Assembly (NCBI GenBank): GCA_951406725.2
Contig: OX597831.1
Span: forward strand, 35,588,001 to 35,652,000
Origin: Octopus vulgaris
Taxonomy: Eukaryota
Direction of reading: 5' to 3'
DNA: 64,000 nt
Positions 7,225 through 54,120 of this stretch are shown in pieces. A model generated the notes under the pieces. That model was not told the DNA's origin. It worked only from the letters and a program-made list of their open reading frames with translations, and made no database searches. How positions within the stretch are numbered: the stretch's first letter is position 1; each line of letters starts with the position of its first letter. Made by a program: the position numbers and the translations under genes.

Positions 7225-7790
7225 TCTGTCAGTCTGATCTTCTCTCTCCCTCTCCCATCTCTCTTCTTCACCCCTCTCTTCTTCTGCCCTTTCTTCTTCC
7301 CTCTTTCTCTCCTTCTCCCTTCTCTCTCCTCCCCTCTCTCCTTTTCCCTCTCCCTTCTCTCTCTCCATCTCCCTCGCCTTCTCCCTTCTCTTTCACTCTC
7401 TCCCCCTCCTCCCTCTTTCTCCTTTCCTTCCCCTCTCCTATATCCCCCTCTACCCTCCTCTCCTCTCCTTCCTCTCTCCCTCTTCCCCTTCCAGTCTCCC
7501 CCTCCCATCTCCCATCTCCCCCTCTCTTCCATCTACTTTTCCCTCTCCCTTCTCTCTCTCCATCTCCCTCACCTTCTCCCTTCTCTTTCACTCTCTCCCC
7601 ATCCTCCCTCTCCTCCCCTTCCCCTTTCCTTCCCCTCTCCTATATCCCCCTCTACCCTCCTCCTCTCCTCCTCTCCTTCTTCCTCTCTCCCTCTTCCCCT
7701 TCCAGTCTCCCCCTCCCCATCTCTTCCATCTACATTTCCCTCTCCCCACCCCCCCTTTTCCACCTGTCCCTCCCTCTCCCTCTCGCACTC
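7225..7790. repeat. Polypyrimidine/polypurine tract with an internal ~195-bp duplication (similar tract 4075-4520)
   Basis: Almost pure C/T on the + strand; block at ~7345 repeated at ~7540. Confidence 0.85.
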
Positions 7791-8345
7791 CATATGGTTT
7801 TAATAGAAGACATGGGTTAAAGTATCGTTATCACCCACAGGTCTTGAAGAGATACAGAGAAATATGAGGAGTTGTTTACCTGGGTGTTTACAAAGAAAAC
7901 AAGCTCGGTGAGATGGATAAGCTATGCAAAGTCAAAAGGGGTTGGGTGAAAGCCATTTTGCAATATATAAATGGGCAAATTAAAAGTACAAATATTTGCT
8001 TGGAAACAAATAAAAATGTATTTAAAAAACCACAATGATTAAAACATACTAAAACACAAATATATAATTTTCTCCTTACTTTCTCTTTGATTAGATCTTG
8101 TGGCAAAGTAATACTGTTTGGTCTTACAAAATTCCTCCAACAACTTTTTTTACTTGTAACTGTGTTAAGTCTAAATCCCTAATCTGTTTGTCTTAAAACT
8201 GAAGCAAGATTAACTTTAATACAGCTACTATTTGAGCACCCCAAAGTGCCTGATTCAAAGCAAATGTTACCATTGCTCTTGTCACTATTGCTGTCTTCAA
8301 AACAACTTGTTAGACTGTTTGGAATATTTTTATTGATTTATTGTA

Positions 8346-8742
8346 CTCAGGCATGGCTGTGTGGTTAAGAAGCTTTCTTTGCAACCATGTAGTTTCGGGT
8401 CCAGTCCTACTCTATGACACATTGCACATGTGTGTCCTACTATATCCCCTGGCTGACCAATGCCCTGTGAGTGAATTTGGCAGATGGCAACTGTATAGAA
8501 ACCCACCATGTATATGTGTATGTGTGCGTCAGTGTTTATCCACACCCTCACTATTTGACTATCTGTATTTGTTTATGCCGTTATAACTTAGCAATTTGGC
8601 AATAGAAACTGACAGAATACATACTAAACTTAAAAGAAAAAACATACGTACTAGGGCAATTTGTTTGACTGGAACCCTTCAAGGTGGTGCTCCAGTATTG
8701 CTGCAATCCAATAGCTGAAACAAATAAAAGACAAAAGTAAAG
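8346..8742 (+). mobile_element. SINE family B copy, diverged
   Basis: Collinear with 9972-10380. Confidence 0.75.
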
Positions 8743-9250
8743 ATGAAGAATCAATTATTCATTTAAATGTTAATTTTTTCTTCTTTTTGTTCTTTCAGTT
8801 GTTTATTTATTTACTTATTTTTGGGGATATGCGTTCTTCTTCATTCTTCATTCTTCATTTGTTGTTGCAATGTTTTTGCCGTGTACTGTATTTGCATTTG
8901 CTGTCCATTTTTAAAACTGAAAATGTCATGCTTATAAATAAATGAGAAAAAAAAGTTTGTAAAAGCAACCTTCTCTTTTCACTCTTTTTGTCTGGCCCTT
9001 GGGTATCAAGGGCAGGTTTCTCCAGGTAATTATAGCCCTTTTCAGCCAGTATTCCAATGAAAATTTCATTAAGTAATGCTATAAATATGGTCTAGCTTTG
9101 GCACAAAAGAAACACGTGTGTTCACTTTGAGAGCCAGTGGTGATGATGATGATGATGACGATAGTTGTCATCATCATCATCATCATGCTGATGATGATGA
9201 TGAAAAGCTGAAAGAACAACATTAAAATGGCAATTTCTTTTTCTCTCCAG

Positions 9251-9322
9251 ATCTGAATATATATTAGCCAAACCTCCACCATTGTTGAAGGAGTTGCCAG
9301 AGGAAGCGAAAGAATTAGCAGC
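9251..9322 (+). CDS. CFAP221: Internal coding exon, CFAP221-like (SEYILAKPPPLLKELPEEAKELA)
   Basis: Acceptor tttctttttctctccag, donor gtgagt; 72 nt, phase 2-2, in frame with 7098-7198; PPLLKELPEE resembles the recalled CFAP221 PAILDALPEE. Confidence 0.72.
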
Positions 9323-9749
9323 GTGAGTCTTTTAGTATTTATATTTGAGTAAAAAAAAAAGAATAAAAAAAAACAAAAAAAAAAAAACAACATCCAACCA
9401 TAATTTGTTCACTAAAGAAACCATTTGGTGTGTGTGTATGAGTGTGTTTCTGTGTATGTATTTTTGTATAGGTGAAGTGATGTATATGTGTGTATGTATT
9501 AGATGAAGTTTTGTCATTGGAATGTTGTTGTTGTTGTTTTTTGCTTAGCCCCGGGTCATGTTCTCATCAAAAGCATTCTGGCTGTGACAGTCTTATTTTT
9601 ATTCCGTCATAGTGTACCTTGGATTACACTATCCAGAGAAATTACTTCAAACCACATTGTATCAACATTGCCATCTTAAATAAACCTCAAATTACCCCCT
9701 GCTGTCATTGTATCCTGGGCTCTTATAATTCTACTACTCTACTGTACTC

Positions 9750-9955
9750 AAAATGTATCCCTAAAGATTTGAATAGATGGATAGAGGAGATTGGCATAAA
9801 ACCTAGTTTAGTGCAGCTCCAGAAAACAGTGTTATTAGGGACAGCTAGGATACTTTGGAGGGTTCTTGGTGTCTAAGGTTACTTGCTGTAGCCCGATGTT
9901 AGGAACTTTTCTTTTCCAGCAGTTTAATCTGTTGTGTGTATATGAAGAAATAATA
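9750..9955 (+). mobile_element. Extreme 3' end of an R4/Dong-type LINE
   Basis: PKDLNRWIEEIGI..LQKTVLLGTARILWRVL* followed by a short 3' UTR ending aaataataa. Confidence 0.7.
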
Positions 9956-9971
9956 ACCCTTTCTATCATAT

Positions 9972-10380
9972 AGGGGCAGGAGTGGTTGTGTGGTAAGTAG
10001 CTTGCTTACCAACCGCATGGTTCTGGGTTCAATCCCACTGCATGACACCTTGGGCAAGTGTCTTCTATTATAGCCTCGGACCGACCAAAGCCTTGTTAGT
10101 GGATTTGGTAGAAGGAAACTGAAAGAAGCCCGTCGTATATATGTATATGTATATATATGTGTGTGTGTTTGTGTTTGTCCCCACCCACCCAAACATCGCT
10201 TGACAACTGATACTGGTGTGTTTATGTCCCCGTAACTTAGCAGTTCAGCAAAAGAGACCGATAGAATATGTACTAGGCTTACAAAGAATAATTCCTGGGG
10301 TCAATTTGCTCGACTAAAGGTGGTGCTCCAGCATGGCTGCAGTCAAACGACTGAAACAAGTAAAAGAGTAAAGGAGAGTA
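9972..10380 (+). mobile_element. SINE family B (tRNA head, CORE-like domain, internal TA/TG microsatellite), full length
   Basis: gcaggagtggttgtgtggtaag..GGTTCAATCCC B box, accttgggcaagtgtctt core, tail gactgaaacaagtaaaagagt. Confidence 0.85.
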
Positions 10381-10850: not shown

Positions 10851-12232
10851 ATCATCATCATCATCATCATCATTTAGCGTCCGTTTTCCATGCTAGCATG
10901 GGTTGGACGGTTCAACTGGGGTCTGGGGAGCCCGAAGGCTGCACCAGGCCAGTCAGATCTGGCAGTGTTTCTACAGCTGGATGCCCTTCCTAACGCCAAC
11001 CACTCCGAGAGTGTAGTGGGTGATTTTATGTGCCACCGACACAGGTGCCAGACGAGGCTGGCGAACGGCCACGCTCGGATGGTGTTTTTATGTGCCACCG
11101 ACACAGGTGCCAGACGAGGCTGGCAGACGGCCACGCTCGGATGGTGTTTTTATGTGCCACCGACACAGGTGCCAGATGAGGCTGGCAGGTGCCAGACGAG
11201 GCTGGCAGACGGCCACGCTCGGATGGTGCTTTTATGTGCCACCGACACAGGTGCCAGATGAGGCTGGCGGACGGCCACGATCGGATGGTGTTTGTTACGT
11301 CCCCAAAGCACGGAGGCCAGTCTATGCGGTACTGGCTACGGCCACGTTCGGATGATTTTCTTGTGTGCCACCGGCACTGGTACCACAAAGATACAAATTC
11401 CATTTATGTTCATCTATTTTGATTTGTTTTGATTTGATTTGATTTGATTTGATTTTCACTTGCCTCAACAGGTCTTCACAAGTGTCACAAGAAGGAAGGT
11501 ATGCACAGGTGGACTGTCTACGTCGCCGGGTCTTCGGATGGTGTCTTTATGTGCCACCGACACAGGTGCCAGATGTGGCTGGCGAACGGCCACGATCGGA
11601 TGGTTTTCTTGTGTGCCACCGGTACTGGAACCACAAAGATACAAATTCCATTGATGTTCATCTATTTTGATTTGGTTTGATTTTGATTTTCACTTGCCTC
11701 AACAGGTCTTCACAAGTGTCACGCGTGTCACACACTTGCCTCAACAGGTCTCCACAAGTGTCACACACTTGCCTCTGCCTCAACAGGTCTTCACAAAGTG
11801 TCACACACTTGCCTCTGCCTCAACAGGTCTTCACAAGTGTCATAAGAGGGAAGGTATGCACAGGTGGACTGACTACGTCGCCGGGTCTTTGGATGGTGTT
11901 TTTATGTGCCACCGACACAGGTGCCAGGTGAGGCTGGCGAACGGCCACGATCAGATGGTGTTTGTTGTGCCCACAGCACGGAGGCCAGTCGATGCGGTAC
12001 CAGCTACGGCCACGTTCGGATGGTTTTCTTGTGTGCCACCTGTACTGGAACCACAAAGATACAAATTCCATTGATATTCATCTATTTTGATTTGGTTTGA
12101 TTTTCACTTGCCTCAACAGGTCTTCACAAGGGTCACACACTTGCCTCAACAGGTCTCCACCAGTGTCACACACTTGCCTCTGCCTCAATAGGTCTTCACA
12201 AGTGTCACACACTTGCCTCAACAGGTCTTCAC

Positions 12233-13429: not shown

Positions 13430-13771
13430 GCCCTGATGCAGTATCAGGCACTGGCTCAAATGGCTTCTGATCTTAACTGATTGGAAGTGTTACCATGTAC
13501 ATTCTTTTGTTTGGTATAAAAGATGGGCTACAGCAAATATTCTGCTCAATGCCATAGATTTGCTTGTCAGTTGTTTCACCTTAACCAGTTGAGCATGTCC
13601 CTTGGTGGCTGACAATATGTGCATCTCTGATCATGAGTGGAAGTAGTGGGGGAGCATCATAGCCATGTGTTGAGAGGGATTCTTTGGAGTTTGAATAATT
13701 CACCTATGGAAACATGGGTATTTCGTTCAACATCCTTAACCTGTATTCAAGGACCATTTGAGCGGGATGGG
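13430..13771 (+). mobile_element. Family D 5' part (the 3' part of another copy lies at 44641-44978 +)
   Basis: Begins GCCCTGATGCAGTA after (AAC)n; aligns with the reverse complement of 24263-24818. Confidence 0.8.
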
Positions 13772-13820
13772 CATATATAATTTAATAGCACCACCTGGAA
13801 GAGATACACAGATTTTGAAT

Positions 13821-14441
13821 GCAAAATCACAGTCATGGCAGATACTGGTGTCCTGCGAATGGCACCGGTGCAAAATTGCAGTTGTGGCAGATACAACTGT
13901 CCTGCAAATGGCACTGGTGCAGAATTGCAGTTGTGGCAGATACTGGTGTCCTGCCAATGGCACCAGTGCAGAATCGCAGTCGTGGCAGATACTGGTGTCC
14001 TGCCAATGGCACCGTTGCAAAATCGCAGTTGTGGCAGATACCACTGTCCTGCAAATGACACTGGTGCAGAATCGCAGTCGTGGCAGATACTGGTGTCCTG
14101 CGAATGGCACTGATGCAAAATTGCAGTCATTGCAGGTACCACTGTCCTGCAAATGGCACTGGTGCAGAATTGCAGTCGTGGCAGATACTGGTGTCCTGCG
14201 AATGGGCACCGGAGCAAAATCACAGTCATGGCAGATACCAGTGTCACGCAAATGGCACCCATGCTGTTGGTGCGTAAAAGCACCCATTACATTTTTGGAG
14301 TGGTTGGTATTAGGAAGGGCATCTAGCCATAAAAAATCATGCCAAATCAGACTGGAGCTTGGTGCAGCCTTCCAGTGTGCCAGCCCAGTCAAATCATCCA
14401 ACCCATGCCAGCATGGACAACAGATATTAAATGATGATGAT
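13821..14441 (+). mobile_element. Family C copy with ~9 x 49-bp internal tandem units
   Basis: Unit gcaaaatcgcagtcgtggcagatactggtgtcctgcgaatggcaccggt (period 49) followed by the family C 3' block and gatgatgat tail. Confidence 0.85.
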
Positions 14442-24262: not shown

Positions 24263-24818
24263 TTGAGTGAGATAGCAGCGCATGCTATCAAAGTGACACT
24301 GGGGTAAAATATACGAAGCCCAGTGTATCCATCATGACAACCCATCTTATAAGGGTACACCAGGCACATGCATCACAACCATGCGTGCGCGACATGCTGA
24401 TCTCATATCAAGATAAGCAGTGCATGACCTTCCAGGTGGGGCCCAGTTAGAATTTTCTTCAGATCAAGTAGCCCATCCAGCTCAAAAGATCCCTGAATAA
24501 GGTTTGTTAAAGTATGTTGAACGAAACACTCATGTTTCCAGGGGTGAGTTATTCAAACTACAAAGAATCCCTCTCGACACTTGGCTATGATGCTCCCCCA
24601 CTACTTCTGCTCAGGATCAGAGATGCACATATCATCAATCATTAAGGGACATGGTCAACTGGTTATGGTCAAACAACTGACAAACAAATCTGTGGTATTG
24701 AATAGAATATTTGCTGTAGCCCATCTTTTATACTAAGACAAAACAATGTACATGATAGCACTTCCAATCAGTTAAGATCAGAAGCCATGAGAGCCACTGC
24801 CTGGTACTGCATCAGGGC
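24263..24818 (-). mobile_element. Family D: ~555-bp non-coding element embedded in (TAA)n, full length
   Basis: On minus starts GCCCTGATGCAGTACCAGG and ends ..ctcactcaa then (TAA)n; no ORF; five copies in the window. Confidence 0.85.
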
Positions 24819-24851
<33 letters not shown>

Positions 24852-24956: not shown

Positions 24957-25525
24957 TAACATTATTAAAGACAGGGAAGAAAATTCTTGTAGACTAACAG
25001 ATGTAAGTGTTCCCACTGATAAAAATATATCTCTAAAGGAATTGGATAAATTAAGAAAATATAAGGACCTAGAAATTGAAATACAAAAGATGTGGCATCT
25101 TAACGCAAAAACTGTGCATGATATTGTTGGTGCCCTAGGTATGATAAAAAAAGGATGTCAGAAGCATTTAGATAAGATCTCAGGAGAAACATGTCTCAGA
25201 GAAATCCAAAAGATTGTGCTGACAAATACTTCCCACATCCTTAGAAAAACCCTATCCATTTGGATGTCTGTGCTGTATTACTTGTAGATATTTCACCTGT
25301 CAACAGAGTGGAGAGGGCACTTACCCTAGTGATCAGGACTGTTGTAGACTTGTGGGGTTTTCATGAGCAGTCCTAGGACATCTCCCGCTTTTGGGGAAAT
25401 TTTGGTGTTATATTCAATTGTTTTTTTCTTTGTTTACATGACTTTCATGTAACCCCATGTTTGTCCTGTGTTGTCCATAATGTTTATTTATTTGTAAACA
25501 CTTTGTGATTAATAAAGAAATAATT
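24957..25525 (+). mobile_element. R4/Dong-type LINE 3' fragment (second subfamily)
   Basis: DVSVPTDKNISLKELDKLRKYKDLEIEIQKMW..IVGALG..EIQKIVL; flanked by trinucleotide microsatellites. Confidence 0.85.
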
Positions 25526-26208: not shown

Positions 26209-26397
26209 TAATAATAATAATAATAATAATGATAATAATAATATTAATAATAATAATAATGATAATATTAATAATGATAATAATGATAATAATGATAATA
26301 ATAATAATAATAATAATCATGATAATGATAATGATGATGATGATAATGATGATGACGACGACGACGACGATGAAAAATAATAATGATAATAATAATA

Positions 26398-26930
26398 AAC
26401 ACTACCAGCTTCCAACTTCAGAAAGATGGTATCAGCATAAAGCTGAAACTGTGACTGGAAAAGATGATGTAACAGTACTCTGGGACATGCCAATCAACTC
26501 TGATAAAGAAATCACGGCAAACAGGCCAGATATAATCATCAAAGATGGGAAGAATAAGACATGCTTAATGATAGATGTGACAGTACCATCAGAGAGAAAT
26601 GTGTCCATTAAAGAAGTTGAGAAGTTATTTAAGTGCAAAGACCTAGAAATAGAAGTGACCAAGGTGTGGGGAATGAAAAGCAGCACAGCACCAGTGGTGA
26701 TTGGAGCGTTAGGGCTAATGAAAAAGGGCCTTCATAAGCAGCTCATCAAACTCCCTTGCAGTGTTAACGTGGGAGAACTTCAGAAAATAGTGTTGCTAGG
26801 TTCTGCATACATTATACGCTGTGTACTTTTCATGAGATGAGGACCTGCTGTGAGCCTAGGGTCAAGAGATGACCCCGGTTCAGCAGAAGACAATGGACCA
26901 TATTTTATTTTAAGACAATAGTAATAATAT
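26398..26930 (+). mobile_element. Shorter 5'-truncated copy of the same R4/Dong subfamily
   Basis: Near-identical to 52665-53175 (PTSERWYQHKAETV..LWD..NRPDIIIKD..IDVTVPSERN), with the same 3' UTR; flanked on both sides by (TAA/TGA)n. Confidence 0.9.
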
Positions 26931-30232: not shown

Positions 30233-32860
30233 ATATTTTTGTGTATCAAAGTCAAGAACTGATGGTTTTTCAAAATGAAATTTTGATCTGAATATGTTGC
30301 TATACTGCATCCCAATCAATTATAATGATGATGAAAATGATAGTGGTTGCCATTAAGCCAAGGCCACAATTATTTATGGGTGATAACAGGCTGTATTGTA
30401 CTATACTCTTAGTTACATAATCCTAGTTACTTAGTTTCCTCCAAAACACAAAAAGAAAGATAGAAAACAAGACCAGTCTTGAGGCAATGACAAGTGACCG
30501 AGACCTTTGGAGATATACTGTGCTTGAGAAGACCCAGCAAGCCCAGTGAGACCGTGGCTCTGGCCTATGCCAAAGTTACATAACCAGCCCTGGAGATATG
30601 CTGTGCTTGAGAAGACCTGGCAAGCCAAGTGAGACTGTAACCATGGCCCATGTTAGTGTCGCATAACCGGCCCATTTAAGAGTACCTTTCAATCATTGGG
30701 CTTAAGAAAACCTGCGGAGTCAAGTGAAATCATTGTTGTGGTCGATACCAGTGCTGCCTGACTGGCACCTGTGCCAGTCAGGCAGCATGTAAAATGTACC
30801 CACTACACTCTCGGAGTGGTTGGTGTTAGGAAGGGCATCCAGCTGTAGAAACCTTGCAAGATCAGAGTGGGGTCTGGTGCAGTCTCCTGGCTTGCCAGTC
30901 CTCAGTCAAACCATCCAACCCATGCCAGCATCGAAAGCGGACATTAAAAGATGGTGATGATGACAACAATGATGATGATGATGTGTAATAGGGAACTCTT
31001 ATATTTTTAAGACAGTAAGATATGATCAGAGGGAGATTTGGCTGTTATTTCTAGCTGTTCTTATGTCCATGTAGAGGGTATTTTTTCACATTGCCTCAAG
31101 TAAATTTCCAATAGAAGTAATACAGAATTGATTTTGCATTTCCAACAACTGAATTTTCTGCGGGTGAAAAAAAACAAAAACAAAAACATCAAAATCTACC
31201 CTCTTCTAAAAAAAAGAAAAGAAGAAAAACCAAAACTAATAATAAATGAAATAAAAAGAAGTAAAATAACTCAACATCAACTCACCACCACCACTACAAC
31301 AACAACAACAGCAACAACAATTGTAAGCGGGTCAACCAAAGTCAAACCTCTGACATTCTCTGAAATTGAATCGAGTTCCATTTGAAAATTTCAATTTAAT
31401 CTTTTGTTTACATTCAATTATTACAGTTTATTATGGCTGTTTATAAGATGCAATATTCATTAATATTTTGGGTCGATGTGAAGATGAATATTTGGATGGT
31501 GGTGGTGGCGGCGGTGGTGGTGGGAGGGTGGACTCGGTGGTTGTGGTAGCGGTGGTGGTGGTGGTTGTGCAGGAGGTAGTGGGTGTTGTTGTTGTTGGTG
31601 GTGGTAGAGTTAGTGGTTCGGAGTAGAGGTGATAGTTGCCAGTGGAAGTGATGGGTTGTGGTGGGGGTGGAAATGGTGGCAGTGGTGGTGGTGGTGGTGG
31701 TGGTGGTAGTGGTAGAGTTAGTCATTTGTGGGTGTTGTTGTTGTTGGTTGTGGTGGTAGTGATAGAGTTAGTAGTTCATGGTAGAGGTGATAGTTGCCAG
31801 TGGTAGTGATGGGTTGTGGTGGTGGTGGTGGTGGTGGTGGTTTTGGGAGGTAGTGTGTGTTGTTGTTGTTGGTGGTGGCAGTAGAGTTAGTGGTTCGTGG
31901 TGGAAGTGATAGTTGCCAGTGGTAGTAATGGGTTGTGGTGGTTGTGGGAGGTTGTGTTTATTGTTGTTGTTGGTGGTTGTGGTGGTGGTGGTGGTAGAGT
32001 TAGTAGTTCATGGTAGAGGTGATAGTTGCCAGTGGTAGTGATGAGTTGTGGTGGGGATGGGGTGGAGGAGGTTTAGTCAGTGGTGGTAGTGGTGGGTGAT
32101 AATGGCGGTGGTGGTAGTGGATGAACGTGGTGGTGGTGGTGGTGGTTGTGGTGGAGGTTGTAGTTGCTGGTGGTAGTAGCGGGTGATGGTGGTGGATAGT
32201 AACAGTGGTGGTTGTGGAGGTAGTTGGTGGTAGTGGTGGTGGTTGTAGCGAGAGTATTGGTGGTGGAGGTGCTTGTTGGGAATGATGGTGTTGGTGAAGA
32301 TGATGGTGATGGAGGCGAGAGTGGCTTAGGGGATTGTAGAATCGACATTGGTGGTGATGGCAGTGGCAGTGTTGCTGGTGGTGGTCATGGTAGCTGTGTT
32401 GCTATTATTGCTTAACCCACCCGAGTTTTAACTCTGATCGATGTAGCCCTATGATCGAAGACATTCCAAGCAAGACCATCCTGTCTTTTTCCTGTGTGCA
32501 AGGAATCCATAACCACTCTATTCAACAAATCCCTTTTTAAATGATAGACAAGATTTGAGGGAGATCTGGCTGCTGTCTCTAGCAGATAGAGCAATCATCT
32601 AGAGCAACAGTTCTCAACCATTTATTTCCCTACGGACCCCTTTAGTTCCACTCTTACTCTACTGGACCCTCATAACCATCCGATGCTTAAAAAATCCTAT
32701 TATATTTTTACAATTAAATATCAAGAATCATATAAAAAATTGTTAAAATATTTTGTGGACTGCAGTTCTTATATTTAAGAGATGAGGAATTATGTACATT
32801 ATTTACATTATTTACATTATTTACATTTGGCAGATATTTGTCCTCATCTTGTTTGTTGTT

Positions 32861-32906
32861 AACACAATGTTTCGGCTGATATACCCTCCTGCCTTCATCA
32901 GGTGTT
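32861..32906 (-). ncRNA. Minimal type I hammerhead ribozyme motif within repeat family E (32760-32960)
   Basis: AACAC-CUGAUGA-A-GGCAG..CAGCC-GAAA-CA-UU-GUGUU: intact core, 5-bp stem I, stem II with one mismatch, minimal stem III. Confidence 0.7.
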
Positions 32907-32959
32907 TTGGGGAAATTTCGAACCTGGGTTCTCATTCCTAAGGTATTTTTCAATGTTGA

Positions 32960-32993
<34 letters not shown>

Positions 32994-32994
32994 A

Positions 32995-33034
<40 letters not shown>

Positions 33035-33065
33035 ATTATTATCATCATTATCATTATTATTATTA

Positions 33066-33609
33066 TCGTGTGAGGGAGCAGTGATTGCCATCAAAGTGAC
33101 ACTGGGGTAAAATATACAAAGCCCAGTATACCCATCACGAATACTCGTCTAATAAGGGTTCACCAGGAACATGAATTACAACCATATGTGCACGACATGG
33201 TGATCTCATGTCAAGATAAACAGCGCATGACCTTGCAGGTGGGGCCCAGTTAGAATTTTCTTCTGGTCAAATAGCCCATCCCACTCAAAAGCTCCCTGAA
33301 TAAGGATTGTTTAAGGATGTTGAAGTAACCACCCATGCTTCCAAAGGTGAATTATCCAAACCTCCAAGAATTCCTCTTAACACATGGCTATGATGCTCCT
33401 CCACTACTTCTGCTCATGATCAGAGATGCACATATCGTCAACCACTAAGGGACATGCTCAACTGGTTAAGGTCAAACAACTGGCAAGCAAATCTGTGGTA
33501 TTGAACAGAATATTTACTGTAGCCCATCTTTTATACTAAGACAAAACAATGTACATGATAACACTTCCAATCAGTTAAGATCAGAAGCCACGAGAGCCAC
33601 TGCCTGTAC

Positions 33610-33610
<1 letters not shown>
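33066..33610 (-). mobile_element. Family D copy
   Basis: Collinear with 24263-24818; (ATT)n on both sides. Confidence 0.85.
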
Positions 33611-33648
<38 letters not shown>

Positions 33649-34434
33649 AGTCAAAATTAAAAGAAGAGTGCCATTGTCATCTAGTCAACGATATTTTGAC
33701 ATCTTGTGTGTCTTCAACTGGTTCAAAAAATAGATTTATTGCTCATAAATTTTAACAATAAACGCTTATATGGGCCCTTAAGGGCCATACGAACCCTTAA
33801 GGGCCATATGGTCTCTGGCTGAGAACCACTGATTGAATGATACTCTTATTGGCTTGTGTGGGTGTTGGTGGTGATGGCAGTTGCTGGAATAATGTGAGCA
33901 TGTAATTTGAGTTTTGCTGGTGGTGATAGTGATGGTGATGGTGGTGGTGGTGGATGCATGGGTGTGATAGGGATGGAGTGGGTGGTGATGATAATGTGGA
34001 TATGGTGATGGTGGTGATGGTGGTTGTGGTGGTGATAGTAGTGGGCGAGGTTATGTTCCGTGTCAGTTTGCAGGTTTGCAGACGTATCATATCACCCTAT
34101 TGAATTGAGAAGAATAAAAAAAGACAGTTCCAGCAAGTGCCTGATCAATTTCTTACTGGCTCGAAAGAGAGAGAGGGGGGGGTGAGAATGTGAAAGTGAA
34201 AGTGAAAATGAAAAAGAAAGTAACAGATTAAAAGAGGAAAGGAAAGAGAGATGCAGAGAGAGGTGATGGTCAGGGGGTAAGTGTGTGAGAGAGAAGTGAT
34301 GGTTAGGGGGTAAGTGAGAGAGAGGGAGAGAGAGATTGTGTGTGTGACATGATATGAAAACAATTTTAATAGAAATTCATAAAGAAAAGTGATAAATAAA
34401 CTTGACAGGAAGAGATTTGTATCTTTGTTGATGA

Positions 34435-35420
34435 AGGCCATCACTAATTTTCCTCAAACCATCTCTAATTTTTATCAAACAGTCACTATTTCTCATCAAA
34501 ACAAACCATCGTTAGTTTTCTCAAGAGAAATGTTTCATCAGCCCATCATTAGTTTCCATCAAACCATCACTAGTTTTGATCAAATCGTCACTAGTTTTCA
34601 CTAGACAATCACCAGTTTTTATCAAATTATCACCAGCTTTCTTCTGACCATCTCTAGTTTTCATCAAACCATCATTAATTTTCATCAAACTATCTTAGTT
34701 TTCATTAAGCCATCACTAGTTTTGATCAAACCATCACTAGTTTTCATTAGACAATCACCAGCTCTTATCAAATTATCTCCAGCTTTCTTTAGACTATCAC
34801 TAGTTTTCATCAAACTACTAGCTTTCATTATACCATTACTTCTTTGCATCAAGCAATCACTAGTTTTCATTGAACCATCACTCATTTTCATCAAACCATC
34901 ACTAGTTTTCATTAGACAATCACCAGTTCTTATCAAATTATTTCTAGCTTTCTTTAGACTATCACTAGTTTTCATCAAACCACTAGCTTTCATTAGACCA
35001 TTACTTCTTTGCATCAAGCAATCACTAGTTTTCATTGAACCATCACTCATTTTCATCAAACCATCACTAGTTTTCATTAGACAATCACCAGCTCTTATCA
35101 AATTTTCTCCAGCTTTCTTTAGACTATCACTAGTTTTCATCAAACCACTAGCTTTCATTAGACCATTACTTATTTTCATCAAGCAATCACTAGTTTTCAT
35201 TGAACCATCACACATTTTCTTCAAACCATCACTCATTTTCATCAAACCACCACTAGTTTTCATTAGACAATCACCAGCTCTTATCAAATTCTCACCAGCT
35301 TTCTTCAGACCATTTTTATGAGACCATCACAAATTTTCATCAGACAATCACTAGTTTTCTTCAAACTGTCACTAGTTTTTTTTCAATTTAATCAATCACT
35401 AGTTTTCAATTGGCCATCAC
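34435..35420. repeat. 21-bp minisatellite with a 165-bp higher-order repeat
   Basis: Unit ~catcactagttttcatcaaac; marker agctttctttagactatcac at 34781, 34946 and 35111 (period 165). Confidence 0.9.
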
Positions 35421-44180: not shown

Positions 44181-45199
44181 AAGTGGTAGAAATGCTTCTT
44201 GTCCATGGTATGTAAATTCCAATAGGAGTTCATATTTTGTCATTACAAATGGAAAGTGTGGAGACGTAGATTCATTCAAAGGTCTTGTGGTGTGAATGAA
44301 ATTTTGAGAATGTAGTGGTAGTATTAAGTAGATAGAGAAAAGAGAAAGAGAAAAGCTGTATGTGAGAATGAGGAGAATGGTCAAAAGGAATAGGCGACAA
44401 AAAAAGAAAGAAAGAGGAAGAGAAAATGAAAAATGGAGTGTTAGTTGGTGGGCAAGATATTATGAGGGGGGAGGGAAAGGAATAGGGGAAAGATAGGAAG
44501 AGATAGCCTTAATAATAAGAATAATGATGATGATGGTGGAGGTGGTGGTGGTGGTGGCGGTGGCGGCGGCGATGATGATGATGATGATAATAATAATGAT
44601 AAGAAGAAGAAGAAGAAACAGAAGAAGAAGAAGAAGAAGAGGGGGAGCATCATAACCATGTGTTGAGAGGAATTCTTTGGGGTTTGAATAATTCACCACT
44701 GGAAACATGGGTGTTTCTTTCAACATCCTTAAGCAGCACCTTATTCAGGGACATTTTGAGTGGGATGGGCTACTCGACCAGAAGAAAATTCTAACTGGGC
44801 CCCACCTGCAAGGTCATGTGCTGTTTATCTTGATATGAGATCACCATGTCGCGCACATATAGTTGTGATGCATGTGTCTGGTGTACCCTTATCAGACGGG
44901 TAGTCATGATGGGTATATTGGGCTTCGTATATTTTACCCCAGTGTCACTTTGATGGCATGCACTGCTCACTCACCCAGTAATGATAATGATAGCTTCAAA
45001 TTTCGACACAAGGCCAGCAATTTCCAGGGAAGTAGAATTCAATTATATTGACCCTAGTATTTCACTGGTATTTCATTTTATTGACACTGAAGAAATGAAA
45101 AGCATTGATTTCAGTGGGATTTGAGCTCTGAAACTTACGAGCTGGAACCAATAGAGCAAAACATTTTTTTTTCTGACACTAATGATTCTGCTAACACGA

Positions 45200-48990: not shown

Positions 48991-50830
48991 GCGCGCGCAC
49001 ACACACTCAAAAGCTGTTACACACAGACATAAATACTAACGTACACATATTTACATAGATAACATTCATACCACATCTTAAGTGTTTTATATTCTTTTAC
49101 TCTCTCTTTCTCATTCATATGTGTGTGTGTGTGTGAGTGTGTGTGTATGTGTGTCTGTGTAAATGTGCAACTGAATATATATTTATATATGTGTGCGTGT
49201 GCATGTGTATGTTAATATGTATGCGTATATATGTTTGCGTGCGTGTGTGTGTGTGTGTGAATGAGTGTATATGAGTACACATGTGTGTATATGTGGGCAT
49301 AGATATATGTGTACTAGTGTGTGTATATATGTATGATATATGTAAGAATGTATGATTTTGTATGTGTGTTTGTGTGTGTGTGTGTGTGTGTGATGGCAAA
49401 TGATTTGAAAACTTTTTATTCAAATTTTCACTTAATAAATTATTGCTTTCCTTTTTTTTTTTTGGTTTGTTTTCTAAAACATTAAAAAAACCTGTTGTTT
49501 CTTCAATATTTTCCATTTTTCTTATGCAATAATCTTCTTTTTTATTATTATTCTCTCCACAAAAAAATGTATGTATCAGTTTTAAGAATTCACGAGTCTC
49601 ATAAAAATTGACACAATGGTTTTCAAAATAAATAATATTGGTATGATAATATACACTTGAAGAACTTTCCGACATAACACTTCTCAGAAAATAAGGAATG
49701 GTAGAGTTTGTGTGGTGTTGCACCTGAAGATTTTGGGTGAAATTTCTCACTGGTTCTGCTTCAAGGGGTGTGAGAAAATGTTAGTGGTTGTGAGGGCAGA
49801 AAACCGAATTGCTACTCTTATGAGAGAATTGACTATCTTGGGCCCTTCTGTATGTCTTGTAGCTGTTAAGAGGAGTGTTGAGTGATGTCTCTTGCTTCTA
49901 CCATTCCTGACAACTATAGCTCCTTCTCAGGTCATATAGACTCATAAAGCCAGTTTCCTAGATTTTGCAGTGTATATGTTCCTCTCCTATAGGATGGATG
50001 TGGAGGTGTGTGGTTTTGTTCTTAGCATGTTGGGTGCATGCTTGAAGATTGTGGCTTCGATTCCTGGACTGGGTGATGTCCTGTGTTATCAAGACATCAC
50101 CATCATATAAGCAGTGTCATTTTCTTTTCTATTTTCCACACAAAGCATGCTTAACCAAGGAAAAATATTACCTAGCTTGGATATAGGTGAAGGCTTGTGA
50201 CATGAAGGACATCAGGACAGAGTGGAGGCATGTAGTTTAGTGGTTAGGATGCTGGACTCTTGACAGTAAGATTATGGTTTCAATTCCTGGACAGGGCAAC
50301 ACATTGTGTTCTTGAGCAAAACTCTTCCTTTCACATTGCTCCAGTCTACTCAGCTGGCAAAAGGGAATGATCCTGTGAGGGACTGGCGTCCTGTCCAGGT
50401 AGGGAACATACACATCATAGAAACCAGGAAACCAGCTCTTATGAGTTTGTATGACTAAAGAAGTTAACTTCACTTTTACTTTTTACCTTTACATTCCAGT
50501 GGATGGAATGCCACAGTCTTAACAACAATACTCATTTCCTTTTTTTTGCCAGCTGAGTGGACTGGATCAATGTGAAGTGAAGTGTCTTGATCAAGAACAC
50601 AATGCATTGCCTGGTCTAGGAATTGAAACCACAACCTTACGATCATGAGTCCAACACCTTAACCACTAAACTACATGCCTCCATAACAATAAAAATCCGA
50701 AGCTGCAACAACAACAGCAACAACAACAACAACAATCATATGAGAAGGATACAATTCTATATTTAAGAGATGAGGAATTATGTACATTATTTACATTTGA
50801 TGGATATTTGTCCTCATCTTGTTTGTTGTT

Positions 50831-50876
50831 AACACAACGTTTTGGCTGATACACCCTCCAGAATTCATTAGGTGTC
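50831..50876 (-). ncRNA. Family E hammerhead motif, core decayed (element 50754-50930)
   Basis: GACAC-CUAAUGA..CAGCC-AAAA-CGUU-GUGUU; homologous to the other two copies. Confidence 0.5.
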
Positions 50877-50957
50877 TTGGGGAAACTTCAAACCTAGATT
50901 CTCATTCCTAAGGTATTTTTTGATGTTATCACTCTTCTTCTTCTTCTTCTTCTTCTT

Positions 50958-51048
<91 letters not shown>

Positions 51049-51049
<1 letters not shown>

Positions 51050-51585
51050 TGAGTGAGAGAGCAGTGCATGCCATCAAAGTGACACTGGGGTCAAATATAC
51101 AAAGCCCAGTGTACCTATCATGACTACCCATCTGATAAGGGCACACTAGGCACATGCATCACAACCATATGTGTGTGACATGGTGATCTCCTATCAAGAT
51201 AAACAGTGCATGACCTTGCAGGCCAAGCCCAGTTAGAATTTTCTTCTGGTCGAATAACCCATTCCACTCAAAAGGTCTCTGAATAAGGGTTGTTTAAGGA
51301 TGTTGAACAAAACACCCATGTTTCCTGAGTTAAATTATTCAAACCCCAAAAATCCCTCTCAACACTTGGCTATGATGTTCCCCCACTACTTCTGCTTGTG
51401 ATCAGAGATGCACATATCGTCAGCCACTAAGGGACATACACAACTGACAAGCAAATCTGTGAGATTGAGCAGAATATTTGCTGTAGCCCATCTTTTATAC
51501 TAAGACAAAACAATGTACATGATAACACTTCCAATCAGTTAAGATCAGAAGTCATGAGAGTCACTGCCTGGTACTGCATCAGGGC
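51049..51585 (-). mobile_element. Family D copy, full length with a small internal deletion
   Basis: Collinear with 24263-24818; (ATT)n on both sides. Confidence 0.85.
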
Positions 51586-51638
51586 ATTTATTATTATTAT
51601 TATTATTACTATTATTATTATTATTATTATTATTATTA

Positions 51639-51706
<68 letters not shown>

Positions 51707-51708
<2 letters not shown>

Positions 51709-51786
51709 TCAGGTCACTGCTTTGAATTGGAACTCGGAATCTTGGGGTTAGTAGCCTGCGCTCTTAACCACTACACCATATGCCCG
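51707..51786 (-). mobile_element. Very short (~80 bp) tRNA-like SINE ending in (TAA)n
   Basis: Minus strand: gggcatatggtgtagtggttaagagcgc..gagttccaattc..cagtgacctgaataat; A box TGGTGTAGTGG and a degenerate B box. Confidence 0.6.
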
Positions 51787-51811
51787 CGGGCATATTATTA
51801 TTATTCAGTGA

Positions 51812-51851
<40 letters not shown>

Positions 51852-51905
51852 AATTATAATAATAGTAATAATAATAATAATAATAATAATAGTAATAACA
51901 ACAAC

Positions 51906-51967
<62 letters not shown>

Positions 51968-52016
51968 CAATAATAATAATAATAATAATAAATAATAATA
52001 ATAATAATAATAATAA

Positions 52017-53180
52017 TAGTTAAAAGCAGATGTAAACAGGATTTATTTACCGAGAACCATGGGAGGAAGAGGACTAACTCAATTAGAATTATCTTACAAA
52101 ACTACCACTGTAGGATTAAATACATATCTTGAGCTGTCAAAAGATCCTCTAATGGAGCTTGTGCACCTACATGATAATGTAAAGAAGCTATACTTGGTAT
52201 ACAAAAAATCAGTACAGTTTAAGAAACAACTGATGACGGAAGAACCTATGATGAAGGCAAATGAGAAAGTAACCCAGTTTCCTAAAAGAGTTAAGGAAGA
52301 GATGAAAAAACAAGTTGAGAAGAAGAGCAAAGAAGAATGGCTAGAAAAACCGCTGCATGGCCGATACCTATGTAGAGTGAACAAACCAGACATAGAAAAA
52401 TGAGACACATGTATGGATGTAGAGCTCAGGACTGAAGGCTGAAACCGAAGGTTTTATCATAGCAGCACAAGATCAAGGCTTGGCAACCAGAGCTTACCAC
52501 AACAAAATAATAAACAATGGCACTGACCCGAAATACAGAATATGTCATGAGCAGGATGAAAGAGTGGACCACATCTTAACTGGATGCACAGCACTTGCAA
52601 AAGCTGAATATATTCATAGACATGATAGAGTAGCGCAATATATCCATTGGAAGATATGTAAACGCTGCCAGTTTCCAACTTCAGAAAGATGGTACCAGCA
52701 TAAAGCTGAAACTGTGACCAGAAAAGATGATGTAACAGTACTCTGGGACATGCCACTCAACACCGATAAAGAAATCATGGCAAACAGGCCAGGCATAATC
52801 ATCAAAGATGGGAAGAATAAGAAATGCTTATTGATAGATGTGACAGTACCATCAGAGAGAAATGTGTCCATTAAAGAAGTTGAGAAGTTATTTAAGTACA
52901 AAGACCTAGAAACAGAAGTGACCAAGATGTTGGGAATGAAAAGCAGCACAGCACCAGTGGTGATTGGAGCATTAGGGCTAATTAAAAAGGGCCTTGATAA
53001 GCAGCTCATCAAACTCCCTTGCAGTGTTAACATTGGAGAACTTCAGAAAATAGTGTTGCTATGTTTCGCACACATTTTACGCTGTGTACTCTCCATGAGA
53101 TGAAGACCTGCTGTGACCCTAGGGTCAAGGGATGACCCTAGTTCAGCAGAAGAAAACGAACCATATTTTATTTTAACAAC
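52017..53180 (+). mobile_element. 5'-truncated R4/Dong-type non-LTR retrotransposon (post-RT region, zinc knuckle, restriction-like endonuclease), frameshifted
   Basis: RIYLPRTMGGRGL, AAQDQ, YRIC..DHILTGC (decayed CCHC), RHD, LWD, NRPG..IDVTVP..KYKDL, IGALG; preceded by a long (TAA)n, the known Dong target; frameshift and stop near 52400-52422. Confidence 0.9.
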
Positions 53181-53237
53181 AATAATAAAATCGAAAAATA
53201 CCTTAGGAATGAAAACCCAGGCTTGAAATTTCCCCAG

Positions 53238-53283
53238 GACACCTGATGAAGGCTGGAGCGTATATCAGCTAAAACGTTGTGTT
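53238..53283 (+). ncRNA. Family E hammerhead motif with GAAA mutated to AAAA (element 53188-53348)
   Basis: GACAC-CUGAUGA-A-GGCUG..CAGCU-AAAA-CGUU-GUGUU. Confidence 0.55.
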
Positions 53284-54120
53284 AACAATAAACAAGATGA
53301 GGACAAATATCCGGCAAATGTAAATAATGTAAATAATGCAAATAATTATATAGGAAGGAGTCTACAGTAAAGAATAATCTTAAACTAAACAGGACATACA
53401 GGAAACAGCTCAGACATATATGGTAAAAAAAGTTGGTACCTTCTGATTCTTCAGAGATGAAGAATATGGTAAGGGTGAAAGGGAAGAGTTGAAGAAATTT
53501 TACAAAATAGAGAGTTTGACACTATTGATGAGGGTTGTTCACAAGATGGCTGCAGTTGTAGCTCTCAGGTTCAAATGCTTAGCAACCCAATGTCTACCTG
53601 TCTGTGTGTCTGTCTCTGCCTCTCGTGTATTCTTCCCCGCTCCATACACACGTACACAAAGAACATAGTGAAATGTGTGGGCCAACCGAGTGACCAACAG
53701 AAATAATAGCAACATCATCAAGATAAAAATAAGTGCCAGTTGAATACTGGGGTATTTAATTCGTCTTTAGTCAAAAGACCCACCGTTAATGTCCTGTTAT
53801 TTGTATTTGTGTACCATTTCTCCATTTTTTTTTGTCCTTGTATTCTGCTTTCTTTTGCTGCTTTCTTCCAAGGAATCTAGTGCTCTTCACTTAGTTTTTC
53901 CTCGGGGCTGGCCAGATTGGAGCAATCTTGAGTATAACCAGCCGAAATTGCAAAGATAATCTGGAACTCGACTGAAGAAAGAAAGCTCCAAATGACCCGT
54001 CCTTGTTTTTTTTTTTGTATCGTCTGTCTGGATGTTTTGTTGTCCTTTTTTGTATCGCCTAACTGTCTGGATGTTTGCATTCTTGTACCATTTTTGTGTG
54101 TATATATATATATTTTAACC

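Follow-up and report, generated by a model that had tools for sequence, protein, structure and literature searches.

In a 64,000-nucleotide (nt) stretch of the Octopus vulgaris genome (contig OX597831.1 of assembly GCA_951406725.2, forward-strand positions 35,588,001 to 35,652,000; hereafter the window, whose own numbering is used for coordinates below), a repeat of ~195 nt containing a hammerhead ribozyme motif, designated E, is present in three copies, each located 3' of a (TAA)n tract and on the same strand as the element upstream of that tract. The upstream element is a TAA-tailed repeat, designated D, at two of the E copies and the 3' end of a Dong-type long interspersed element (LINE) at the third. 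The question raised by this arrangement is whether E is tied to D and Dong, as proposed in a preliminary description of the locus, in which E either carries a TAA landing pad that recruits these elements or forms with them a composite mobile unit using a borrowed ribozyme. Our results indicate that E is the hammerhead-bearing start of the reverse transcriptase (RT)/putative endonuclease open reading frame (ORF) of a Penelope-like element (PLE) and not a free repeat. It is highly probable that the end repeat of this PLE consists of a tRNA-like head (H), (TAA)n, and E, and that D and Dong were inserted afterwards into its internal TAA tract.

The repeat end of the PLE reads, in order, ORF, stop codon, 35-nt spacer, H, (TAA)n, E, and ORF. 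E copies were picked by likeness to E1, the first of the window copies, or by an exact hammerhead motif, and in both samples (the 29 further loci that best match E1, and the first 30 among 915 exact hammerheads) the usual upstream neighbour of E is a (TAA)n tract preceded by the 75-nt H, which at two E loci is preceded in turn by endonuclease-coding DNA. H and/or E directly follow the stop codon in 29 of the 30 loci with a PLE endonuclease end (H in 27 and E in 28), a set that includes the query itself and six near-duplicates on contig C31. In a near-full-length PLE copy, E continues into the N-terminus of the ORF, and at least 5 of the 30 loci retrieved with the E/N-terminus region read H-TAA-E-ORF. 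E is thus found after the stop codon and again at the ORF start, i.e. in a pseudo-long terminal repeat (pLTR) or partial tandem structure. The consensus unit is ~2.67 kb long (2.74 kb when H is counted at both ends) and contains an ORF of 841 amino acids (aa), the ATG of which lies inside E. An RT domain (PF00078, E-value 1.4e-10) was identified by Pfam in PLE copy L215, and 19 homologs of the PLE protein were found at E-values of 1e-30 or below. A putative GIY-YIG motif (VYSIPCSCG..YKGET..R..EH) common to the homologs is visible by eye at the C-terminus; Pfam gave no match on the PLE's own domain, and one homolog has PF01541. From this architecture, the element may be placed in the Penelope/Poseidon clade. 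Contigs from four DNA-like sequencing runs with four organism labels span the spacer-head junction, and the architecture is therefore not confined to this assembly. The preliminary description was right to link E to PLEs, and E is coding sequence of a PLE itself. E is abundant (~10-16 matches per Mb), which matters for repeat annotation, where the family may be split into a 'SINE' (short interspersed element) and a 'Penelope'.

The second and third window copies, E2 (50749..50929, minus strand) and E3 (53185..53346, plus strand), are the two arms of one head-to-head PLE insertion centred at ~51786-51805, because the ~100 nt at 51710-51815 hold both a minus-strand head and a plus-strand head fragment. 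In the left arm, E2 retains the full 3' tail and is followed by a (TAA)n(GAA)n tract (50933..51048), a full-length D (51049..51587) nested in the TAA tract of the arm, the remaining (TAA)n tract between D and the head (51588..51709), and H itself (51710..51785), all on the minus strand; H has recognizable A and B boxes and was absent from the preliminary description. The right arm, all on the plus strand, opens with the inversion junction and a 3' fragment of H (51786..51815, with the head fragment at 51806-51815), followed by a (TAA)n tract (51816..52018), a 5'-truncated LINE with the restriction-like endonuclease end (52019..53170) nested in this tract, and E3, which lacks the tail. From its motifs, we take the LINE to be of the Dong/R4 type; Pfam yielded no LINE match there. 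The whole insertion is bounded by a degenerate 14-nt target-site duplication (50736..50749 and 53346..53359, plus strand; 11 of 14 positions identical), and the PLE tail is present on the left arm only. Since E2 and E3 are arms of one insertion, the window contains two events and not three: the positions given in the preliminary description for the three E copies and for the elements upstream of them are correct, but copies 2 and 3 are not independent.

Locus 1 lies within a miniature inverted-repeat transposable element (MITE; 32609..33831) with terminal inverted repeats CAGT..TTCTCA, which we presume to be hAT-like and both halves of which match an uninterrupted relative in locus L070. The insert is read on the minus strand. 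E1 (32763..32957; 96% identity to the family consensus) comprises the PLE ORF start with its ATG at 32935, the hammerhead, and the full 3' tail, and its encoded peptide aligns to the N-terminus of an 847-aa homolog (P0005, E-value 5e-6), including the residues that overlie the hammerhead core. Upstream of E1 are a (TAA)n tract (32960..33066), which would combine the PLE internal tract with the tail of D, a non-coding, TAA-targeting D copy lacking the first ~12 nt (33067..33609), a second (TAA)n tract without a tRNA-like head upstream (33610..33647), and a fragment (33648..33737) of an unrelated 151-bp repeat, designated F, which elsewhere occurs in tandem and inverted copies. No target duplication was found for the insert within the MITE, and a search for the empty site of the MITE yielded repeat F instead.

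Inverted pairs like that of the window are common in the family. On C1 (1-27 Mb), the head-to-head arrangement accounts for 12 of 13 close E pairs. Of 48 inverted pairs, 37 have the tail (the final 40-50 nt of E) on a single arm, 10 lack it altogether, and 1 carries it on both arms; words of at least 8 nt are shared between the two flanks in 14 of the 48 pairs, compared with 3.5% for mismatched flanks. These target duplications flank H-TAA-E inverted pairs and consist mostly of ordinary AT-rich sequence. Craig et al. (PMC8557442) count copies of this kind, inverted and 5'-truncated with a 30-40 nt tail at a single end, among the hallmarks of PLEs, and the tail is explained by Frangieh et al. 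(2024, PMC11167929) by two RT start sites inside the ORF start. The 3' ends of E form two classes: of 145 matches, 136 end either within positions 138-170 or no earlier than position 186. We propose that the transcript would begin at H within a tandem locus and that the PLE RT would start cDNA synthesis inside the ORF, at about E140-155 or E194, as has been demonstrated in vitro for the green anole element Poseidon_Ac. A short H-TAA-E copy would result if synthesis began at the 5' E, and an ORF-bearing copy if it began at the 3' E, whereas two initiations at both strands of one break would give an inverted pair with one tail. D and Dong would later enter the internal TAA tract as they would any other, in one orientation. 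Inversion junctions gather at a short palindrome, GCCC-AC-GGGC, that spans the first base of the head (51786-51800 in the window, and many other loci), and this junction is also present in RNA reads.

The hammerhead motif quoted in the preliminary description, GACAC-CUGAUGA..GAAACGUU-GUGUU, is that of the family consensus and occurs in none of the three window copies. The consensus has all features of a minimal type I hammerhead (CUGANGA, GAAA, NUH, stems I and II, and a palindromic stem III), and the intact 45-nt motif has 915 exact genomic copies, against 0 for the reversed control. In E1, the motif (32861..32906, minus strand; predicted cut between 32866 and 32865) retains the core and has lost the stem III palindrome (ACAU for ACGU), with one mismatch in stem II; E2 has the core changes G5A and G12A, and E3 has G12A. 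The core is intact in 22 of 56 sampled E copies. Position N7 is the sole strongly dimorphic core site (38 T and 15 A), a pattern that would be expected if active masters kept the core, and other frequent changes are mostly at CpG sites; the E copies are neutral mutants of few masters. Predicted pairing is 0.4 for stem I and 0.7 for stem II, with a stem III self-duplex of -5.7 kcal/mol. Rfam reported neither a hammerhead nor a tRNA at E or H in the window or at loci L152, L134, and L343. The cut would fall ~90 nt inside E, and the predicted cleavage does not set the 3' ends of E copies, because these ends lie ~50-100 nt past the predicted cut. Three RNA runs with a related organism label gave 7270-10315 reads on the element, with both strands equal and read ends not piled up, in libraries unable to reveal cleavage or start sites.

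By its sequence, H is tRNA-derived. In a comparison with 30 tRNAs of the Arg, Ala, Thr, Cys, Lys, and Glu types, Arg was best, H being identical at 49-51 of 75 positions to the tRNA-Arg genes of this genome (z 7-8), and a profile built from eight tRNA-Arg genes scored H at 24.0 bits, compared with a null maximum of 5.9. The A and B boxes match the consensus, lie at H8-18 and H53-61, and have tRNA spacing. H is not a tRNA gene, as ARAGORN detected 0 tRNA genes in 10 loci and the Rfam search was likewise negative. Copies tend to begin at the head: 27 of 54 H-bearing copies start at H -7 to +5 (~2 expected), as do 19 of 37 inverted copies and 8 of 17 non-inverted ones, and we infer that transcription would start at about this position. 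From its place in the unit, our guess is that the head was captured at the 5' end of the transcript and that the TAA run is its tail. PLE promoters have been little studied, and the head bears on how PLEs are transcribed; a captured tRNA head at the start of the end repeat would also make each short copy a potential source, which bears on the origin of SINEs.

For the short copies taken by themselves, another explanation retains a minor but real share of the probability, namely that H-TAA-E is a separate SINE, comparable to SM-alpha of Schistosoma, with its own short transcripts made by RNA polymerase III (Pol III) and mobilized in trans by the PLE enzyme. Across the genome, exact 20-mers number 963 for the spacer that borders H upstream, 5148 for H itself, and 8633 for the 5' start of E, although internal RT initiation on a full-length transcript would yield the same product. 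Copies that start at the head are less diverged in H than others (0.061 vs 0.088, p=0.017), and G9 of the A box is kept in 25 of 25 head-start copies compared with 9 of 15 others (p=0.0013), this being one of 75 sites; we found no variant confined to the short copies, and sampling differed between the two sets. At loci L158 and L142, the flank 3' of E is duplicated in inverted form and present in both arms, which suggests read-through templates or fold-back repair, the former being in line with such a SINE. Against it, the same head belongs to the end repeat of the autonomous element and is thus shared with that partner, and long copies start there as well (L319 and L334).

The composite unit of D or Dong with E, its RNA end set by a borrowed hammerhead, is very improbable. 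Its attraction lies in the adjacency seen at all three window copies, two of which are one insertion, and in the 11 D-TAA-E cases among 62 sampled D copies, which include a small clade rich in them. Within the window, three of five D copies (24264-24820, 13430-13771, and 44628-44978) and one of two Dong 3' ends (26396-26907) are without E, and a distinct Dong-like 3' end follows the first of these D copies (24960-25287). Junctions were judged in sampled loci and along the initial 27 Mb of C1. E follows D in 2 of 30 D loci (two overlap), the other 28 being without E, and at 1 of 17 random D 3' ends; on C1, an exact D is followed by an exact E in 2 of 74 cases, whereas an exact H is followed by an exact E in 16 of 48 (p=4e-6). 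In a tree of the 62 D copies, in which E-adjacent rows are over-sampled, 9 changes account for the 11 E-adjacent rows (mean of 10.3 after shuffling; 66 of 500 shuffles as low), and a single origin of E-adjacent D appears in 0% of bootstrap trees, the bootstrap being not fully settled. Adjacency is therefore not obligate, and E-adjacent D copies are not monophyletic. The slot before E has been filled by no fewer than four elements, D and three Dong-like ends; nested H-TAA-D-TAA-E arrangements are present in L152, L215, L301, and the window, and at the inverted loci with D that were inspected (the window, L203, and L236) D is in one arm or present once only. Target duplications lie around H-TAA-E inverted pairs, and the 3' ends of E lie well beyond the cut that would have had to set them.

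The TAA-matched comparison, for which 117 TAA tracts were taken from 100 stretches of 10 kb at fixed positions, gave no excess of E next to D or Dong. Among 80 E copies in which the 5' edge is intact and 700 nt of sequence is available upstream, we found H across the tract in 47, truncation against an inverted partner in 12, a Dong-like 3' end in 7, D in 3, and other sequence in 11. The tracts of E were thus invaded in 10 of 80 cases, compared with 28 of 117 random tracts that have D or a Dong-like end 5' (Fisher p=0.065, in the direction of fewer at E); E lies directly after 3 of the 117 tracts. A TAA tract does travel with E, being internal to the PLE end repeat between H and E, and it does not recruit Dong or D as had been supposed. 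The shared strand is constant, as described, but follows from TAA strand polarity alone, because D and Dong carry TAA on their sense strand, as does the PLE tract. In molluscs, (TAA)n is an established target of Dong elements (PMC7998251), and the LINE 3' ends and D studied here likewise lie in TAA tracts in fixed orientation. We saw no sign of a partnership of Dong/R4 with the PLE beyond the shared target. Also very improbable is an independent TAA-targeting E that meets D and Dong at a common target: 11 of the 80 E copies have neither a head nor a known invader upstream and some PLE clades favour microsatellites (PMC8557442), but the target duplications are mostly ordinary AT-rich sequence, the 3' flanks of E are not TAA, and the tract lies between fixed H and E junctions.

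We are therefore confident that the adjacency is ordinary nesting and that D, Dong, and E form no composite system; the link proposed between the two retroelement systems falls away. Several points weigh against this conclusion. The null is imperfect, in that many of the random tracts are the tails of D or of LINEs and the E tracts are often short. E follows D in 3 of 47 cases compared with 2 of 106 non-D tracts (odds ratio 3.5, p=0.17), a difference that is not significant and is compatible with a modest enrichment. One D clade, starred in the tree, has four of its five members nested in PLE ends; the fifth is a solo D that shares the diagnostic sites of the clade. The order of insertion is deduced rather than dated, and the history of locus 1, which is without a head and a target duplication, is read from that of the family. 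As for D itself, this ~540-nt repeat has 8480 exact 3' motifs in the genome and includes a young subfamily near 1% divergence.

How the head is transcribed is a separate matter. Its boxes, the copy starts just before the A box, and a lack of TTTT hint at transcription of the head by Pol III. The sense strand of the whole unit (~2.7 kb) has no TTTT; in the ORF, the count is 0 compared with 3.0 expected (codon shuffle, P=0.024), whereas two copies of the 781-aa PLE family of this genome, used as a control, have 7 and 6 compared with 4.9 and 5.3 expected, respectively. A mononucleotide-shuffle test (P=0.0045) was set aside, as G runs are absent too. We consider it possible, though on balance unlikely, that the autonomous PLE took a tRNA-derived Pol III promoter as the start of its pLTR, is transcribed over its full length by Pol III, and gives rise to tens of thousands of SINE-like head-TAA-hammerhead copies, a SINE thus emerging from within its own partner; in that reading, the 2.7 kb lack TTTT because Pol III reads the whole unit. 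Translation of the 841-aa ORF would then have to proceed from a Pol III RNA; this would come as a surprise to specialists, and such translation of a long ORF is hard to picture. In addition, the TTTT result is marginal and derives from a consensus, and a TATA-like TTTATAA overlaps the stop codon 35 nt upstream of H, so that a Pol II start would land in the same range of start positions. The sole relative with a faint similar head, L343, has two TTTT per unit.

Relatives were sought in metagenome contigs (79 loci fetched), and 34 of 35 end regions were without a tRNA-like head. A tRNA match at L354, 480 nt upstream of a truncated PLE, was taken for a neighbouring SINE, and a box match inside the ORF at L352 was attributed to chance. 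L343 is a distant tandem PLE on a metagenome contig with a period of 2791 and identical copies, with 43% RT identity. Between its stop codon and hammerhead (L343:2814-2900), motifs resembling A and B boxes and ending in CCA are followed by a short TAA run; this region has a weak tRNA profile score (7.6 bits; null maximum 5.9) and, as noted, is negative in Rfam, and a TATA-like motif lies 47 nt before the hammerhead. L343 may have acquired a similar head independently.

Precedents exist for hammerheads in PLE ends, for inverted insertions, and for the nesting of Dong in TAA. Among the closest systems is Poseidon_Ac (PMC11167929), which, in the parts of its description used here, likewise has one ORF for RT and a C-terminal endonuclease (putative in the octopus element), a hammerhead at the pLTR-ORF junction, two classes of 3' ends inside the ORF start that give an optional tail, and AT-rich targets. 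Unlike in Poseidon_Ac as so described, the entire octopus hammerhead is contained in the ORF, 3' of the initial in-frame ATG, and is preceded ~100-180 nt upstream by the tRNA-like head and (TAA)n; those parts of the description mention no such head. The consensus agrees in every listed feature with the minimal type I hammerheads of PLE pLTRs described by Cervera and De la Pena (2014, PMC4209133); we noted no material difference, stem II having 5-6 bp here and 7-8 bp there. The SM-alpha and Sj-alpha repeats of Schistosoma (PMC6765202, as far as the excerpt used describes them) also have a Pol III-type promoter followed by a hammerhead, comparable to the promoter-like head here, but are non-coding tandem repeats, whereas the octopus sequence is the end repeat and ORF start of an autonomous element. 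Retrozymes have been proposed to derive from pLTRs, with tRNA unmentioned in the portion of that preprint drawn on here (bioRxiv 10.64898/2026.07.22.740005). Literature searches, outside which lay Repbase and Dfam, either of which may hold the family, returned no report of a tRNA-derived head in the pLTR of an autonomous PLE. The octopus SINEs OR1 and OR2 may share a tRNA-Arg-like head with this PLE. These SINEs were reportedly described by Ohshima and Okada in 1994 and are said to be of tRNA-Arg origin. Unlike in OR1 and OR2, H is directly followed by (TAA)n and PLE sequence, with no space for a CORE domain; the two are cited as CORE-SINEs in the extracts of PMC4758252 and PMC4824008 that refer to them.

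Two further observations concern PLEs of this genome. Loci L161-L190 represent a young family in which many 781-aa frames are intact; an additional Cys linker precedes GIY-YIG, and the 3' region contains tandem repeats. This family, recovered by the GIY-YIG search, was considered as the partner of E and rejected, as no E was found in its loci among those listed; the extra Cys linker is not apparent in the E-bearing PLE, and a simple scan of ~1.5 kb downstream of the 781-aa frames gave no convincing canonical hammerhead. On C31, near-identical loci of the PLE (L201, L206, L207, and L212-L214) are distributed along the 12-Mb contig and are probably a segmental or satellite array.

Repeat F, a fragment of which is present at locus 1, has a 151-bp unit and forms tandem and inverted arrays beside TAA tracts (L252-L265, with a tandem array at L260). 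Its minus strand has a hammerhead-like layout in which the core slot reads CAGUUGA in 23 matches, CUGUUGA in 2, and CUGAAGA in 1, and its plus strand has a second such layout (GAAA...CUGAAGA) in which GAAA is intact in 3 of 14 exact-context matches; from these layouts, repeat F appears retrozyme-like. The window also contains minisatellite arrays at 34438-35379, 13820-14264, and 11019-11268, with periods of 21/165, 49, and 62/82, respectively.

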